Virus record (IMG/VR): IMGVR_UViG_3300032272_000071
Span: 1 to 24,504 of that record
Length of the DNA: 24,504 bases
Strand: one strand, 5' to 3'
Origin: a virus
Lineage: Duplodnaviria; Caudoviricetes
Under the pieces are notes generated by a model. The model was not told where the DNA came from. It worked only from the letters and a program-made list of their open reading frames with translations, and ran no database searches. The translations under genes were made by a program, and so were the position numbers. This document shows, piece by piece, positions 4,301 to 23,091 of this stretch (within the stretch, counting starts at the first letter, position 1; every line of letters begins with the position of its first letter).

Positions 4301-4834
4301 TTAGGGAGCGCATCTCACGGCGTGTGCACAGGAGAGTATAGCATCTTTCCAAATGCGCCACCAAATCAACGCTCCCTCGTCCATTTTGTCTATCCGCTCA
4401 TCTGAGAAACACTCCCATTCCTCAAGAGTGTGCCTCTCGCATCCTATCGCCAAAGACTCAGGGTACACGATTATTTCCCACGGCTGTCCTTGAATCCTGC
4501 ATGTTCGTGTATTATCTAATACACTTTCACGGAGATTACTCCAACTGAGATCACTACCACTGAGATTACTCCTACTGAGATCACTACCACTGAGATCACT
4601 CTCACGTAGATCACTCCTACTGAGATCACTCCAACTGAGATCACTACCACTGAGATCACTCTCACGTAGATCACTCCTACTGAGATCACTCCAACTGAGA
4701 TCACTCTCACGGAGATTACTCCCACGGAGATTGTAATCCACCAAGACAAGCCTTTCTCCGTCGGATGGGTTGGCAAGCCACGCCCTGTGAGATTCCACTT
4801 TCTCCGCTAATTCCTCTTTCGTAATGTTTTTCAT
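4301..4834 (-). CDS. Pentapeptide-repeat protein (15 repeats), most diverged paralog
   Basis: Same architecture; start moved to ATG 4834 (MKNITKEEL aligns with MRTLSKEEL; AGGTG 7 nt upstream). Confidence 0.9.
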   Translation of the reverse strand: MKNITKEELAEKVESHRAWLANPSDGERLVLVDYNLRGSNLRESDLSWSDLSRSDLRESDLSGSDLSWSDLSRSDLRESDLSGSDLSRSNLSGSDLSWSNLRESVLDNTRTCRIQGQPWEIIVYPESLAIGCERHTLEEWECFSDERIDKMDEGALIWWRIWKDAILSCAHAVRCAP

Positions 4835-5449
4835 GTTGATCACCTATATAGGTTAGTACCTGTGAGTCTTAGGGAGGGACATATGGACAGATCAAGTAAC
4901 CTCTTAAAAAAATAATATATATCATTACTAACAACTAATATATAATATATTACTAGTAATATACTAATATATTATATATCAATGATCAGTATGATATACA
5001 CTAGTGAGGCTATATTCCCGCACTCACAAGGTGTTGCCAAAGGGTTATTAGTGTATTCTATCGAATGTATGTTAAACGTAACGTTATATCACGTTATCAA
5101 ACGATAGGGTTATGGTTAAAACCCCCGCCCATCCAGTATTTATACGATAATAAACCATGATATGTATGATGGGCGAAATGTTTAACTCGCCTCAGGGCAT
5201 ACTATATTGATCTCTATATTAGAGTATAGTTATACTGTCCAGACTAGCATCCATGCCTGGCCTAGCTATGTTGGTGTTGCTAGCGGGTAGCGGCCGCTCG
5301 TTTGTCCATGCGGTTGGAGTGTAGTGCCGTTTACCACGCTACCAAAGTAGCGAAACAGTACACCAACCATGCCACGTCCAGGTGCCCCCTATGCACGAAC
5401 TAGGTGGGGTGTCAACCCTCCGCCGTTCGGCTTATCCTTCGATTTAGGT

Positions 5450-5478
5450 AGTCTAGCAAACCCGCCTCCCGTTGTCAA
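5450..5478 (-). promoter_or_regulatory. sigma70-type promoter for the leftward block
   Basis: TTGACA-17 bp-TAGACT with extended -10 TG. Confidence 0.8.
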
Positions 5479-5485
5479 CCCCTTT

Positions 5486-5501
5486 TGCAAATAAATTTGC
5501 A
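5486..5501. promoter_or_regulatory. Palindromic operator-like site
   Basis: TGCAAAT-AA-ATTTGCA just upstream of the -35 of the 5450-5478 promoter. Confidence 0.4.
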
Positions 5502-5541
5502 GGGCTGAGGGGGTGAGGGGTGTTTGACTAACCATGAGCAC

Positions 5542-5570
5542 AGTATATATAGCCCATCTACGTATGTCAA
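5542..5570 (-). promoter_or_regulatory. Second sigma70-type leftward promoter
   Basis: TTGACA-17 bp-TATACT with AT-rich upstream sequence. Confidence 0.82.
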
Positions 5571-5824
5571 GTGTTTTCGTACGATATTATCATAAATATA
5601 TAATGGTAATTTTGTTAACGTTATAAGTATAATATATGTATGTATGGGGTATATAAGGGTTTTTGTTTATGCTTGTAGTATCATATGGTGTTATTAGTAT
5701 CATACGTTGACATTAGAGATAGGATGCGATAGTCATAATCGATACTAATATTGTTATTAATTAATATTATTAATGTTGGTATTAATATTATATATTAATA
5801 ATATTATGTTGTTTAGATCAATCG

Positions 5825-5911
5825 AGCTCCCCCCAAGCTCCCCCCAAGCTCCCCCCAAGCTCCCCCCAAGCTCCCCCCAAGCTCCCCCCAAGCTCCCCCC
5901 AAGCTCCCCCC
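5825..5911. repeat. 11-bp tandem repeat (AGCTCCCCCCA) x8; G6 tracts on minus strand
   Basis: Eight C6 tracts at exact 11-bp period, followed by a degenerate unit to about 5930. Confidence 0.97.
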
Positions 5912-5952
5912 GGCCCTGCCCCACCAAGCTACTGTCATCGTCCGGCAGGCAG

Positions 5953-5977
5953 AAAAAAGCCGCTCTATTAAGCGGCT
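5953..5977 (-). terminator. Rho-independent terminator
   Basis: Minus strand AGCCGCT-TAATAG-AGCGGCT followed by a T run, downstream of 6069-6407. Confidence 0.85.
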
Positions 5978-6068
5978 GGGGAATTGTTCCGATACCGGTG
6001 CTAAAAGCCTATCATGTTATTTCTTAGCTCTTTACTCCACGGCATATATCGTACCGGCTAGAGGATTA

Positions 6069-6407
6069 TTATAACAAATCTTGATACTTGTTATGTAGTT
6101 GGTGGTGGATACAGTAAATCGTGTTACCGATCTTCCGCACCTTGTACCTAGATGCAGGAATTCCCCAGTATCTCGCATCGGTAGCGTGAATGGTATTCCG
6201 TTTGGTGATCCTCAGAGTGGTCAACTCTTCCCCGGCACGGGTGGGAGGTGTGCCATCAATCACAACCGCCCGCTTGCCTACAGTCCTCGCCCTACGTGCA
6301 GCAGGATCGCGAGGCTCGGCAAACCGCGCCGACTTGGGAGGCGCGGCCCGCCTAGCCCGCGCTTTCGTGTTTTGTACATTCTTGAATACCTGATTAAATG
6401 TGGTCAT
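6069..6407 (-). CDS. Basic Arg/Ala-rich hypothetical protein, 112 aa
   Basis: Start moved to ATG 6407 (GAGGT RBS upstream); has its own promoter and terminator. Confidence 0.72.
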   Translation of the reverse strand: MTTFNQVFKNVQNTKARARRAAPPKSARFAEPRDPAARRARTVGKRAVVIDGTPPTRAGEELTTLRITKRNTIHATDARYWGIPASRYKVRKIGNTIYCIHHQLHNKYQDLL

Positions 6408-6452
6408 ATCAATTAACCTCGCAACATAACAGAAGGAATGAACAGAGTGCAT

Positions 6453-6482
6453 ACTCTAGTACAAGCGAGAGTAACGTGTCAA
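6453..6482 (-). promoter_or_regulatory. sigma70-type promoter for 6069-6407
   Basis: TTGACA-18 bp-TAGAGT. Confidence 0.6.
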
Positions 6483-6860
6483 CCCTAAATGATTTATGGT
6501 AGTCATCAACGATACTGATACCGATACCGATACTGCCTTGCCTAGCTACTCCCAAGGGGTGGATATAAGGGTAGACGCTAAGAGAAAGGAGTATATACAC
6601 GTATTGGTATTGTATAAGTATTGTATAAGTATTAATGTAACGAGAATCATTATTGTTTAGATTAAGATATGAGTATGTATCGATTACATGGGTACATTAT
6701 ATTGTTTTGTTTGGTTATAACACAACACTTTAACGTAATATTGTGGTATATAAACAACATAATTATATGATAATTTAATTAAAATATGGTCCCATACTAT
6801 TAAATATCGTTATCAATGTTTAATTAGGGGGTATCGTGTATATGTTCTATATAGATATAA

Positions 6861-7017
6861 TAACCTATACAGATATATTACTTATTTTTGTTAACCTATA
6901 TAGTTATATTAACTATATAAATAAGCTGGAGATACGATTATAATAACCTATATAGTTACGATAGTAAAACATAATAACCTATATAAACATAAATATAAAT
7001 ATATAATAGCCTATATA
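6861..7017. repeat. Cluster of TAACCTATA(TAG) motifs, iteron/operator-like
   Basis: Copies starting at 6861, 6892, 6944, 6975 and variant TAGCCTATATA at 7007 in very AT-rich DNA. Confidence 0.7.
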
Positions 7018-7202
7018 AATAGTATAAAATATATTTACATGGACACACTATAAGCGATACCGAATAATATTATATTTATTGGACCCATGCCTGTACAACA
7101 AGGTGTACAACTCTTGTATAACTAATTATGTATAAATATATGGAAATATATCTAATAATTTAAATTATTTTAAAATAAATGTAAAAATAATGAAAAAAAG
7201 AC

Positions 7203-7230
7203 TTGACAAATGAGAAAAGTGTGGTATAAT
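7203..7230 (+). promoter_or_regulatory. Consensus sigma70/sigmaA promoter
   Basis: TTGACA-16 bp-TATAAT with extended TG and A-rich UP element. Confidence 0.9.
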
Positions 7231-7236
7231 CCCCCC

Positions 7237-7940
7237 TATGGAAAAGATTAAACTTTTCTTGTGAATCCGTGCTTTTATTGAAGCTTCAGGGGGCGGCCCC
7301 TGTCGTCAGTCACTCGTTTTAGATGGTTATCCAGGTAGTAAAGAGTGTTACCCGCACTTAGTCTCTATCCCGTCTATTACACGCCTTGTCAGTTGATAAG
7401 TTTAAAAAGCTTATTGATTGGCTGGTTAACCGAAACTGTTATCGAGTAGACTCAACTGTCTAATGGTCGGCAGTGAGTTAATGTTATATCTTTGATAGAA
7501 GCACCTAGAATGGAACAGACTTAACTTTGGCGACTCTTTTGAGGTATCGGAATTTAGGCCCCGGTACTAGTGCCTCCGGTCGCAGCAGGAGTTGATAAAC
7601 AAGAACCCTAGCCTCAGATAACCATGTTGGCTCATGGATAAATTAGGGTTAAGCTATCTAGTGCTTGTTAAGCATTTGCTGGCTACAACGATAATTCAAA
7701 GTTAGGCATAAGGTAGATAGTTAACGATACGTAGGCAACTTGCTTTGAGAAGGCAAGCAGTCTTGTAGGCATTGACTAGGCATAAGTACCCTTACCCCTT
7801 TGTGGGGGACGGGTACATAGTTACGTGATTAGGCTATAGACCTTGCACACGTAACATAATGATTATGCTGGAACGAGAGTCGCCCAAAATACTCTCCTTC
7901 CTTTACCTTATCTAGGTTAACGGAGGCACTCTTATGCCTA
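7237..7940 (+). ncRNA. Candidate large structured non-coding RNA (~700 nt), class unassigned
   Basis: No ORF of 60 aa or more; GC-richer island between AT-rich flanks; dedicated promoter; more than 12 helices, several with G-U pairs valid only on the + strand; long-range stems; ends approximate. Confidence 0.8.
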
Positions 7941-8043
7941 TAATAAAGTAATATTAAAAATATTTATATAAATAATAATATAAAATAATATATAATAATA
8001 TAAAATATATAATAATATTAATATAATATATTATATAACATAT

Positions 8044-8074
8044 ATAAAATCTATGTTTAAGACATAGATTTTAT
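8044..8074. other. Perfect 13-bp inverted repeat (weak terminator or operator)
   Basis: ATAAAATCTATGT-TTAAG-ACATAGATTTTAT. Confidence 0.6.
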
Positions 8075-8169
8075 TAACATAATATAACATAATGTAACAT
8101 TAGATAATTTAATGAATGATCCATTAAAAGATAACCACGATAAGTTTAAAAAAAAGATACAGTCTAAAC

Positions 8170-8198
8170 TTGACAAATGCTCTAGTAGATACTATACT
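8170..8198 (+). promoter_or_regulatory. sigma70-type promoter for the rightward packaging/structural block
   Basis: TTGACA-17 bp-TATACT, A-tract upstream. Confidence 0.8.
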
Positions 8199-8318
8199 AA
8201 ACAATATCCAAGCCCTAGGGTTTGCTATACGAGGAAAAAGCCTGTGAGGGAAGGATACACGGATGCTTTCATTAAGTTGTTAAACCAAACTAAGTCTAAA
8301 TAAAAGGTATGATAGAGT

Positions 8319-8555
8319 ATGAGTAAAGAACACGATAAAGAATATGGATTTCAGTTGATTGCTGAATATCGAGATAATGATGAGGAATTTGCTTATAGAC
8401 TTACCGGTAAACTACCTAAAAGTGGCAGCGCGCTAATGTTCCCGTATAGAGGATTATCGGAAGTTCAAGTGGTTAAGATGGAATACTTAATAAAGGAAAT
8501 GATGGATTCCTTATTCGCTTGTAGTAAAAAAGAGTTGGATGAATCTTCAAGTTAA
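8319..8555 (+). CDS. Hypothetical protein, 78 aa
   Basis: AAGGT upstream; first of a run of tightly packed + strand ORFs. Confidence 0.7.
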   Translation: MSKEHDKEYGFQLIAEYRDNDEEFAYRLTGKLPKSGSALMFPYRGLSEVQVVKMEYLIKEMMDSLFACSKKELDESSS

Positions 8556-8763
8556 TATAATAACCGATGAAAAAGATGTAATCTGTATTAATCTTACTGA
8601 AGAGCAAGAGAAACAAATATTGAGTGTGTTATTTAACAAAAAGCCGGATAAAGTAATTCCTATACCTTACCCATATTATAATCCTTGTTATCCTAAGCCT
8701 CCTTTATGTGACCCACTCATTACAACACAAAAAACATATTGTATGGATAATACAATTACTTAA
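8539..8763 (+). CDS. Hypothetical protein, 74 aa, Pro/Tyr-rich tail
   Basis: Overlaps the previous ORF, co-oriented. Confidence 0.65.
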   Translation: MNLQVNIITDEKDVICINLTEEQEKQILSVLFNKKPDKVIPIPYPYYNPCYPKPPLCDPLITTQKTYCMDNTIT

Positions 8764-8776
8764 CTATTCATAACTA

Positions 8777-8977
8777 ATGAACAGAGTTAATATAGACTAT
8801 TACGTTTTACAACGTTTAAACGATTTCTTATTCCATGGTTATTTATCCAATAACAGAATAGATGTAAAGAAACCAATAAAAGTGTTTAAAGATACAGGAA
8901 GAGGTAGATTGATAGTGTTTCAAGATAGAAAGTATCAATTACCAAAACAACGTGAGGTGCTGGATTATGGGTCTTGA
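8777..8977 (+). CDS. Hypothetical protein, 66 aa
   Basis: Operon packing; no clear RBS. Confidence 0.55.
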   Translation: MNRVNIDYYVLQRLNDFLFHGYLSNNRIDVKKPIKVFKDTGRGRLIVFQDRKYQLPKQREVLDYGS

Positions 8978-9101
8978 TTTTATCTATGAAGGAAATATAT
9001 TAGCCACTGGGATAGCTACTGCTTATTTAATAGCATTATTGTATTTACTTACCCAAACAAAGAAATATTACACTAGGTCAATGAAGGATACATTTGACTA
9101 A
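8967..9101 (+). CDS. Small membrane protein, 44 aa (not in ORF track)
   Basis: GAGGTG RBS 7 nt before ATG; MGLDFIYEGNILATGIATAYLIALLYLLTQTKKYYTRSMKDTFD with one hydrophobic segment followed by basic residues. Confidence 0.65.
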   Translation: MGLDFIYEGNILATGIATAYLIALLYLLTQTKKYYTRSMKDTFD

Positions 9102-9375
9102 AATCATGAATTATCCACTTAGGTCAATGCCGGAACATCGCAGAGGATGGTTTACTTTGGACAGGGAATTAGGTATATTCACTATTATGAATGTTCTTAC
9201 TGAGATAGAATTTATTCCTATTGAGGTAACTCATGGTGTGAAACAAACTCGATACGAAGGATATTCTACTAAGTTTGATGTGATTGATGAAGAGGAACTA
9301 ACTCCTGAATACAGTGTTAAAGTACAAGTTATTCCTAATAATGTTATTGTATACACAGAACGAGTTACAGACTAA
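9094..9375 (+). CDS. Hypothetical protein, 93 aa
   Basis: TTG start 5 nt after AAGGA; alternative ATG at 9106. Confidence 0.75.
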   Translation: MTKIMNYPLRSMPEHRRGWFTLDRELGIFTIMNVLTEIEFIPIEVTHGVKQTRYEGYSTKFDVIDEEELTPEYSVKVQVIPNNVIVYTERVTD

Positions 9376-9394
9376 TAATCAATTTTAAAACAAA

Positions 9395-9655
9395 ATGCCT
9401 AAATACAGTTCAGCTAAAAGTAAATATGATACGGAATATGGCTCTACGAGGAAAGAGAAGCGCAGACGTGCTATAAGAAATAAAGCTAGACGAAGAGCAA
9501 TAGCCAAGGGAGTGGACTTGGAGGGCAAGGACATGGGCCATCGTAGTCGAAGTCTAAAGGGCGGTGTACGTCCTCAGAGTATTTCCAGTAACCGTAGTCA
9601 TGGTGGCAAAGTTGGTAATAAAGCAGGGAAAGCTCGTGGTGGTCGTAAATCGTAA
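9395..9655 (+). CDS. Small basic HNH-like protein (degenerate)
   Basis: RAIRNKARR..GKDMGH..LKGG..SNRS pattern of small phage HNH proteins; sits directly before terS. Confidence 0.6.
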   Translation: MPKYSSAKSKYDTEYGSTRKEKRRRAIRNKARRRAIAKGVDLEGKDMGHRSRSLKGGVRPQSISSNRSHGGKVGNKAGKARGGRKS

Positions 9656-9666
9656 AATATTAAGAA

Positions 9667-10125
9667 ATGCCTACTACACCAAGAAAATCAATATCCGTAG
9701 ATTTAACTACGGAACAAGAAACATTATTTGTTCGGGAATATCTTAGAACCAAGAATGCTACTGAAGCTGTTAAAAAGGCAGGATATAAGACTACTAATTA
9801 TACTAATAAAGGTGTCAGGTTACTTAAAAAGAATAGTGTAAAGGAACTTATTAGAAAGGAACTTGCTAAGAATCGCAAGGTGTCTGTGTTAGATCCGGAG
9901 GATGTTATTAATGGTTTGTGGTTGGAAACTCAGAATGAAAAAACTTCTTCCAGGGACAAGATTACAGCTTGGGTGAAGATAGGTGAGTTTATTGGAATGA
10001 CCCCGGATCCATCCGCCAAGAAAAAGGAACGTGCTGACGTTAGTGTTAATATCGTTAATTACGGTGATAAGAAAGTTGATCAACCAAAAGTAATAGATAT
10101 TACTTCCAATAAATTAACTAAATAA
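9667..10125 (+). CDS. terS: Terminase small subunit
   Basis: LTTEQETLFVREYL..NATEAVKKAGY..GVRLLK HTH of the Terminase_2 type; precedes terL. Confidence 0.9.
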   Translation: MPTTPRKSISVDLTTEQETLFVREYLRTKNATEAVKKAGYKTTNYTNKGVRLLKKNSVKELIRKELAKNRKVSVLDPEDVINGLWLETQNEKTSSRDKITAWVKIGEFIGMTPDPSAKKKERADVSVNIVNYGDKKVDQPKVIDITSNKLTK

Positions 10126-10134
10126 TAATTTTAT

Positions 10135-11481
10135 ATGATCCAACTTCCATATAAGTTTAAACCTTATCCTCACCAGTTAAAATTGCTAAGAGCTATGGAC
10201 AGCGGTACTAAACGTGCATGTGTGGTATGGTCTCGAAGGATGGGAAAGGACAAGACTTTATGGAATTTGGTTATTAAAAAGACTCAAGAAAGAGTTGGTA
10301 TGTATTTATATTTTGTCCCTGAATACAAACAAGGACGACGTATTATTTGGGATGCTATCGATAATGATGGATTACGATTCTTAGACCACGTTCCATCTGA
10401 AATAGTATATAGTATGAATAGTCAGGAAATGAAAATTACTTTTAAAAATGGATCTATATTACAGATTGTAGGTACGGATGATTTCGATAAGATACGTGGA
10501 TCTAATCCAGTAGGTTGTGTGTATTCAGAGTATGCTTATCAGAATCCGGCAGCATGGGAAGTGGTTAAACCTATTTTAAGACTGAACGATGGATGGGCCG
10601 TCTTCCAGTCTACATGCAACGGAAAAAATCACTTTTGGCAAATGTATGAAAAAGCCAAGGAATTAAAATATTGGTTTACTGATAATGTGGATGTAACTCA
10701 GGCAACGGATTGGAATGGGAATCTACTGTTATCTGAGGAAAAGATCAATGAGGAACGGTTGGAAGGGATGCCAGAGGAAATGATTCAACAAGAATATTAT
10801 AATAATCCCAATGCAAACACAATAGCATATTATTACTTGGAGCAACTTACCTTAGCAGAAAAAGAAGGACGATTAGTCGAATTACCCTATATTAATAGTA
10901 TACCTGTAGATACGTGGTGGGATATTGGCATATCGGATGCAACGGCGATCTGGTTCTCCCAACGGCTTGGTAAAGATATTAATCTAATAGATTATTATGA
11001 ACATAAAGGTTCGGGACTAGATTATTATATAAGATTATTACAAGAAAAACCATATATTTATGGACAACATAATGCACCTCATGATATAAAAGTACGTGAG
11101 TGGACCTCAGGCAAATCAAGGGTGGATATAGCTGCCGATTTAGGAATTAATTTTGAGATACTTCCTAAAATAGATTTTCAGGATGGTATAAATGCTACAA
11201 GAATGTTATTTCCTTATTTCCATATAGATCCGGTAAAATGTAAATTAGGTATTGATGCTTTACTTGACTATAAGAAAAAACCTATTGATGAATTTAGACA
11301 ATTATACGATCCGTTTCCTATAAAGAATTGGGCAGTACATGGAGCGGACGCTTTACGAATGATTGGCATTGGATTGAATATGCCGGCAGAATTAAAAAAA
11401 GATAGAAAGATAAAAGGATTTGACCGATACAAAAGAGCTAGAAAATTACGTAGAACTGCAAAATCCTGGAAAACAGCATAA
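10135..11481 (+). CDS. terL: Terminase large subunit
   Basis: Walker A SRRMGKD, Walker B CVYSEY, ST coupling motif, nuclease WDIG and HGADALR. Confidence 0.96.
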   Translation: MIQLPYKFKPYPHQLKLLRAMDSGTKRACVVWSRRMGKDKTLWNLVIKKTQERVGMYLYFVPEYKQGRRIIWDAIDNDGLRFLDHVPSEIVYSMNSQEMKITFKNGSILQIVGTDDFDKIRGSNPVGCVYSEYAYQNPAAWEVVKPILRLNDGWAVFQSTCNGKNHFWQMYEKAKELKYWFTDNVDVTQATDWNGNLLLSEEKINEERLEGMPEEMIQQEYYNNPNANTIAYYYLEQLTLAEKEGRLVELPYINSIPVDTWWDIGISDATAIWFSQRLGKDINLIDYYEHKGSGLDYYIRLLQEKPYIYGQHNAPHDIKVREWTSGKSRVDIAADLGINFEILPKIDFQDGINATRMLFPYFHIDPVKCKLGIDALLDYKKKPIDEFRQLYDPFPIKNWAVHGADALRMIGIGLNMPAELKKDRKIKGFDRYKRARKLRRTAKSWKTA

Positions 11482-22707: not shown

Positions 22708-23091
22708 ATGATTCCAGAATTACATTTAACAAAAAAGGATTTTAAACTAGAGTGGTTTTCTGGCACGGGCAAAGGTGGACAACATCGCAACAAACATCAA
22801 AACTGTTGTAGAATAACTCATATAGATAGTGGACTTAGAGCACAAGGAACCGAGTCAAGAGAACGAGTTGCTAATCAGAAAAAAGCATTTATTAGGCTTG
22901 TTAACTTAATAATTGCTTATTACTCACAAGAAGAAATTAAACCAATTTCAGTAGAAGTTATTCGTAATTATCATGGTGTGCGTAATGATGTACAAGATAA
23001 AGCAAGTGGTGTTCATTCTTCTTACAAACATGTAGTGATTGATGGTATAATGGACGAGATGATAGAGGCAAGACGACGTGCTTGTGTGTGA
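22708..23091 (+). CDS. Class I release-factor-like peptidyl-tRNA hydrolase (GGQ domain)
   Basis: GTGKGGQHRNK..RITHIDSG..SRERVANQKKA; C-terminus IRNY..V.D..DG.MDEMIEA resembles the RF1/RF2 C-terminus. Confidence 0.9.
   Translation: MIPELHLTKKDFKLEWFSGTGKGGQHRNKHQNCCRITHIDSGLRAQGTESRERVANQKKAFIRLVNLIIAYYSQEEIKPISVEVIRNYHGVRNDVQDKASGVHSSYKHVVIDGIMDEMIEARRRACV

Follow-up and report, generated by a model that had tools for sequence, protein, structure and literature searches.

The window analyzed here, the whole 24,504-nucleotide stretch taken from IMG/VR record IMGVR_UViG_3300032272_000071, covers 24.5 kb of a virus record estimated to be 38% complete. Its right arm encodes TerS, TerL, a portal protein, a major head protein, and an RF-1-domain protein (22708-23091, within the structural arm), and its left arm runs in the opposite orientation and holds repeat-rich small genes. 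Between the two arms lies a nearly non-coding divergent block of about 3.2 kb, which holds AT palindromes, a tandem array of an 11-nt C-rich unit (5825-5911), and the candidate RNA that is the subject of this report. The capsid shares 46% identity with that of Pseudomonas phage KPP25, and for Acidovorax phage AP1 the figure is 54%. The head module is KPP25-like; the closest non-identical relatives share about 51% identity in TerL and 63 to 68% in the capsid. A sister strain (G002), 98.8% identical over its overlap with the window, lengthens the known genome and carries a Thg1 gene (Pfam), along with translations that we read as RNA ligase, ribonucleotide reductase, and MazG. The Thg1 and RNA-ligase-like genes lie at 1449-2714 and 8845-9546 of L284, with no tRNA gene in the covered parts of that strain. 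ARAGORN likewise found no tRNA gene in the window, itself an incomplete record.

Promoters, boundaries, and coding capacity

From the upstream promoter toward the packaging genes, the block contains the following features.

7203..7230, + strand: sigma70-type promoter with extended -10 (TTGACA-16-TATAAT with TG), 12/12 match
7237..7940, + strand: predicted non-coding RNA of about 704 nt (no ORF, folding)
7941..8110, no strand: extremely AT-rich spacer of 7% GC at which the GC-rich segment stops (composition)
8170..8198, + strand: second promoter, 11/12, preceding small ORFs and the terS-terL-portal-capsid arm

The preliminary description called the promoter at 7203-7230 perfect, and all 12 consensus positions do match, with an extended -10; none of the other promoter-like sites in 5000-11000, 36 in all, reaches 12/12. 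Judging by the spacing from this promoter, transcription would start near 7237, and we infer a 3' end near 7940. The segment was also said to be sharply richer in GC than its flanks, which holds (0.43, compared with 0.22 upstream and 0.07 downstream), although the rise over the coding arm, at 0.37, is modest. This GC-rich stretch begins directly after the promoter and stops at the last helix. As claimed, no ORF of at least 50 aa overlaps 7237-7940. Because TAA, TAG, and TGA all occur in every one of the six frames, stop recoding cannot open a frame, and the six translations, read through stops as X, matched nothing in Pfam or PHROG; a recoded or decayed protein gene was rejected on these grounds.

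Two statements about context survive only in part. The notion of an independent transcription unit agrees with the promoters found upstream (7203-7230) and downstream (8170-98), but the + strand within 5000-11000 yielded no intrinsic terminator. The link to the packaging genes is one of position only, and the distance to terS is 1.7 kb, with another promoter and a number of small ORFs in between. Elsewhere in the window, a small basic 112-aa ORF at 6407-6069 (- strand), GC-rich for this genome, is served by a promoter of its own (6482-53) and has a ribosome-binding site and a terminator (5977-58). It belongs to no Pfam or PHROG family, and its structure neighbors, AbrB/MazE-like, are all sub-threshold.

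Predicted fold and strand asymmetry

The comparison with dinucleotide shuffles proposed in the preliminary description came out in favor of structure: the + strand has a minimum free energy (MFE) of -228.1 kcal/mol (z -4.8), and none of 150 shuffles folded as low. The - strand scored z -2.6, equaled by 2 of 100 shuffles. The MFE gap between strands, -38.8 kcal/mol compared with -20.8 +/- 7.4 in shuffles, was reached in none of 80. This gap stems from the 5' domain, domain I, which has a z of -5.6 on the + strand and -0.7 on the - strand (asymmetry z -5.1, 0 of 60 shuffles), whereas the asymmetry of domain II alone is non-significant (12 of 60). An authentic group I intron taken from a related phage served as control and gave z -2.8 and an asymmetry of -2.1, weaker than domain I. 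Since G-U pairs turn into A-C mismatches on the other strand, such asymmetry points to RNA over DNA hairpins, and a 5' domain predicted to fold solely as the + strand argues for an RNA rather than a DNA element.

Other measures set bounds on this signal. Strong stems (-12 kcal/mol or lower) number 7, compared with 4.7 +/- 2.3 in shuffles (p 0.21), and repeated k-mers are at chance level. In a coarse run of 9 shuffles over 20 windows of 704 nt, the candidate scored z -3.5 on the + strand, and 3 of the 19 other windows (4900, 6300, and the coding 15300) scored -3.3 to -4.9 on that strand. In the corresponding block of a relative (G033), five windows of the GC-rich non-coding part ranged from z -0.9 to +0.5, no better than shuffles, so position and GC content alone do not yield the candidate's folding signal.

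The predicted anatomy of the candidate, in its parts, is as follows.

7240..7259, + strand: 5' hairpin, 7 bp, pairing probability (P) 0.97
7269..7504, + strand: domain I; its closing helix of 15 bp (7269-83/7490-7504) has a 13-bp core with P 0.95-0.97 from 4 to 37 C
7388..7422, + strand: 16-bp hairpin with five G-U pairs, P 0.97
7520..7940, + strand: domain II, with two competing global folds (predicted)
7569..7578, + strand: 10-bp perfect partner of 7921-30, -18.7 kcal/mol, the strongest helix in the RNA
7703..7712, + strand: first of two identical 10-mers (the other at 7777-86), each a perfect partner of 7931-40
7718..7869, + strand: core common to folds A and B of domain II, P 0.93-1.0
7921..7940, + strand: 3' tail, two abutting 10-mers with perfect internal complements

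Sixteen helices had been listed by eye, and 15 of them pair fully as given; the remaining one, 7449-60/7469-79, needs a 1-nt bulge. In the nested ensemble, 8 of the 16 have a pairing probability of at least 0.9 and 6 a probability of about 0. The long-range pairings fared worst: the four proposed multibranch closers (7424-29/7521-26, 7436-40/7514-18, 7544-49/7725-30, and 7529-38/7875-84), as well as helices 7311-15/7343-47 and 7652-60/7714-22, have probabilities of about 0 there. Constraining six of the listed helices, namely the four closers and two inner ones, raised the energy from -228.1 to -203.2, a penalty of 25 kcal/mol. The five G-U pairs of the 16-bp stem 7388-7403/7407-22 are present as described. 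The helix predicted to close domain I, 7269-83/7490-7504, was absent from the preliminary description; it encloses hairpins at 7287-7302, 7320-76, 7388-7422, and 7449-79.

Domain II can be drawn in two ways. In fold A, the nested MFE structure, 7709-17 pairs with 7902-10 and the 5' and 3' ends are paired; fold B is pseudoknotted, closed by 7529-38/7875-84, and has its last 20 nt folded back. The multibranch architecture proposed earlier is one of at least two competing folds. Common to both is a 3' core in which a long hairpin (7718-78) is flush-stacked on a three-way junction (7779-7869, with arms 7786-7816 and 7820-55). The 3' tail at 7921-40, which the preliminary description missed, is a candidate double pseudoknot or switch strand. 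Complements of this 10+10 form arose in 4 of 5,000 shuffles, or 28 of 5,000 by a looser rule, for a statistic that was picked after the feature was seen; among 68 windows scanned, 10+10 or more occurred in 6 others, all very AT-rich spots. Nested folding gives the pseudoknot helices P 0-0.06 and favors a different global fold, and the pseudoknotted model sums to about -236 kcal/mol before pseudoknot penalties, comparable to the nested -228.1. The prediction is robust for the 5' hairpin, domain I, the 16-bp G-U hairpin, and the 3' core.

Only one closed GNRA or T-loop-like hairpin was present. Three functional guesses were dropped: four copies of UAGGCA as a protein-sponge motif (p 0.23), an anti-tRNA-Glu loop at 7739-57 (any hairpin carrying that loop matches), and antisense to the phage's own genes (chance 12-14-mers only).

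Searches for relatives and known RNA families

No diverged homolog was found, as all searches returned identical copies or noise. The identical copies comprise one record (L291) and contig pieces in four runs from four studies, with zero changed letters. L291 is identical not only over the segment but also over nearly all of 5825-9016, and its identity therefore says nothing on selection. One contig, covering 7290-7508 and retrieved with the candidate as query, comes from a run labeled metatranscriptomic and flagged as probably DNA, and so does not count as evidence of expression.

Distant blastn, run against 50,697 records of phages and 72,556 of plasmids, turned up nothing beyond chance matches of 29 to 33 bases, and BLAST against 50 whole related virus records gave two matches of 15 to 20 bases. 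With nhmmer, the best E value was 9.7 over 483 loci gathered via terminase, portal, capsid, a small neighbor gene, and the first motif scan, and nothing was found among the loci (120, 120, and 92) that three scans of viral contigs for motifs had gathered; of these scans, the first covered 48 of 64 parts and the second 4 of 64. Single-sequence covariance models of 7715-7890 and 7265-7430, run against 100, 92, 8, and 100 sources plus 47 whole records, meaningfully matched the window itself alone. Prokaryote genomes, in sets of 5, 401, and 400, held no match. Distant relatives would escape searches of this kind, and the one scan of metagenomes targeted terminase and not the RNA. Within the literature covered, which takes in a minority of subscription journals, no RNA of this type is described for KPP25-like phages, and a short piece of it could be cataloged in the supplements of PMC10690425.

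Related phages keep the long non-coding divergent block without the candidate sequence. Similar blocks occur in L130, L293, L706, and L707, and perfect promoters lie within the block in L293, L095, and L707; promoter and position alone are therefore not evidence. In L293 an equally perfect promoter at the same position is followed by short repeats, and the comparable gaps of KPP25 and L293 consist of repeats, whereas the candidate has no significant direct repeats. In L707 (G039; 9650-8940, - strand), a different segment of about 710 nt follows a perfect promoter, with z -6.8, many long hairpins, a terminator-like end, and no Rfam or phage match; near its 5' end is a word that we take to resemble a hammerhead core. 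The candidate has no alignable likeness to it (alignment z 1.0), and kinship with the left-hand unit at 5535-5000 (- strand) of its own window was also rejected (z 2.6). That unit mirrors the candidate on the early side: a promoter at 5570-5542 (- strand, 11/12) precedes about 535 ORF-free nt with 47% GC and z -4.5 (0 of 100 shuffles), ending in an AT-rich hairpin at 4998-4918. Its strand asymmetry is weak (2 of 60), and it matched nothing in Rfam or among phages. At equivalent positions in L130 (G008), 4930-4400 (- strand) and 5930-6330 (+ strand) are ORF-poor, with z -3.2 and -3.9. Between the latter and window 5535-5000 there is a weak alignment in an AT-rich stretch (1 of 200 shuffles), which may reflect composition only.

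The Rfam search proposed in the preliminary description found no family matching 7237-7940: there was no hit at gathering level in the window and none up to E 10 in 7000-8200. The reported lack of tmRNA, RNase P, and group I or II intron signatures was borne out by ARAGORN, Rfam, and core-motif descriptors, all negative. For group I, RF00028, a model that detected a real intron in L286, gave no match, and a motif descriptor found a single GACTA without a downstream P7 partner. A descriptor of group II domain 5 built from its consensus (AGC/CGC triad, G-U pair, 2-nt bulge) had 0 matches on either strand. Single-family searches with ROOL (RF03087; no match even at E 10) and OLE (RF01071; no match) were negative in runs whose positive controls gave no signal, and a GOLLD search (RF02032) scored 4 candidates, none at E 10 or below. 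GOLLD and ROOL were also not found in 25 related records, again with no positive control signal.

The likeness to GOLLD and ROOL suggested at the outset holds for size, phage location, and predicted long-range pairing, but not for model matches or tRNA neighbors. ROOL RNAs average 581 nt (PMC5737381) and are described as phage- or prophage-borne, with many junctions, three pseudoknots, intertwined 5' and 3' parts, and few conserved bases (PMC12286853, PMC5737381). The candidate is similar in size and has predicted long-range 3' pairings, but it has no RF03087 match; ROOL itself forms an octamer cage. GOLLD, likewise large and phage-borne, has 5' and 3' domains that can be separated (PMC12286853), and the candidate has two predicted domains but no match to the 416-position GOLLD model, lies outside any tRNA cluster, and is about 100 nt shorter than typical members. 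Adjacency to tRNA genes, frequent in ROOL and GOLLD loci, is absent here, with 0 tRNA genes in the window and 0 in G002. Phage K (Kayvirus) produces two abundant intergenic lncRNAs, lnc001 and lnc002, of about 630 and 1150 nt, the first from its own early promoter (PMC9241854). Their expression is demonstrated and they adjoin tRNA genes, whereas the candidate is a prediction without such neighbors; the distant blastn of the phage collection gave the candidate nothing but 29-33-base chance matches. Ribozymes of the group I, group II, and circularly permuted group II types resemble the candidate in size range and complex folding, but no catalytic-core motif was found in it and it lies outside any gene. 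The pRNA of phi29 is a phage RNA with its own gene that multimerizes by loop pairing; the candidate is about four times as long, and its phage has TerS and TerL, a motor type that is not known to need RNA. The phi29 packaging RNA is also named in PMC12286853.

A candidate trans-acting RNA and its alternatives

Folding, strand asymmetry, and negative family searches support a large + strand RNA outside Rfam, and we consider it probable that 7237-7940 is a real structured + strand RNA. That it is a stand-alone, trans-acting RNA gene is the reading we favor, at about even odds, and that the downstream genes have a promoter of their own counts in its favor. Alternatively, the same strand could supply an unusually long structured 5' leader for the operon of packaging and head genes: transcription would read through the AT-rich spacer, and a switch between the two folds of domain II would time or antiterminate late expression in cis. 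The absence of an intrinsic terminator on the + strand, the shared strand of candidate and late arm, the two mutually exclusive folds of similar energy with a duplicated partner for the 3' tail, and the L293 late arm likewise headed by a perfect promoter all fit such a leader. We still regard it as unlikely, as the downstream genes could be transcribed from 8170-98, no ribosome-binding site falls within the fold, with about 170 nt or more to go before the first ORF, and relatives run the same arm without the candidate sequence; the cis antiterminators and attenuators described so far are also much shorter than its roughly 700 nt.

The block itself, nearly non-coding over about 3.2 kb, with its 11-nt tandem repeat and AT palindromes, with counterparts in L130, L293, L706, and L707, and with neighboring windows that fold equally well, could instead suggest a DNA element of a genome end or origin (a terminal repeat, pac site, or replication element), the folding signal reflecting single-stranded DNA hairpins or local composition. 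That domain I folds on the + strand only and relies on G-U pairs, and that the segment is without significant direct repeats, unlike the KPP25 and L293 gaps, makes this quite improbable. Neutral or recently acquired non-coding DNA with a folding score high by chance would account for an orphan sequence, for stem counts at chance, and for z of -3 or lower in other windows, but with 0 of 150, 0 of 80, and 0 of 60 shuffles reaching the observed folding and asymmetry values, and with a GC-rich segment bounded by the promoter and the last helix, it seems very improbable. An uncharacterized catalytic RNA or decayed self-splicing intron, whose 3' tail would act as an internal splint for circularization or back-splicing, we hold to be the least probable of these readings. 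The tail would pair perfectly with 7703-12 (or 7777-86) fused to 7569-78 (4 of 5,000 shuffles), a group I intron is present in a related phage, and circularly permuted group II ribozymes occur in nature (PMC8637638), but the segment interrupts no gene, has no group I or II Rfam match, no D5-like hairpin, and a GACTA without a P7 partner, and flush coaxial helices give the same geometry without any chemistry.

Returning to a stand-alone RNA, its mode of working would, by analogy, most plausibly be GOLLD/ROOL-like, with membership in neither family. Host sigma70 polymerase would transcribe the RNA of about 700 nt from the 7203-7230 promoter, starting at about 7237, and the product would act in trans as an RNA scaffold that probably assembles with itself in the manner of GOLLD and ROOL. 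ROOL and GOLLD are reported to form RNA-only cages via kissing loops and pseudoknot-like bridges (PMC12286853). In the candidate, a two-domain fold may be completed by long-range pseudoknots in which the 3' tail locks onto 7569-78 and 7703-12 (or 7777-86), and the same tail pairings between molecules could drive oligomerization. Speculatively, the particle could serve as a decoy or shelter in a contest over host translation, an idea drawn solely from the RF-1-domain gene in the window and the Thg1 and RNA-ligase-like genes in the sister strain. More tentatively than for the RNA itself, and at less than even chances, we propose that it is the founding member of a new class of ornate phage RNAs of about 700 nt with a tail-zipped RNA-only assembly, and that the KPP25-like divergent block is a slot for several unrelated giant RNAs. 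The slot idea draws on the second orphan of about 710 nt in G039 and the opposite-strand candidate of about 535 nt in this genome.

Few known bacterial or phage RNA classes are this large, and two of them form ribosome-sized RNA-only cages of unknown purpose; the report on these leaves open how general cages are among large phage RNAs (PMC12286853). If the proposal is true, an unrelated 700-nt phage RNA without tRNA neighbors would test the generality of cage formation. Orphan RNAs of this type escape covariation-based surveys, and in the largest viral survey within the literature covered the candidates from IMG/VR span just 29 to 151 nt (PMC10690425).

A group I intron missing from the annotation of L286 (MW202615.1, 13803-14125; Rfam 67 bits) lies just before the annotated capsid gene, which it appears to split. 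In the left arm of the window, 59-2701 and 4301-4843 (- strand) hold five paralogous genes with pentapeptide-like repeats and a common C-terminal domain. Differences between L291 and the window are clustered at these paralogues and at 9017-9271, and L291 differs by one unit in the 11-nt array.
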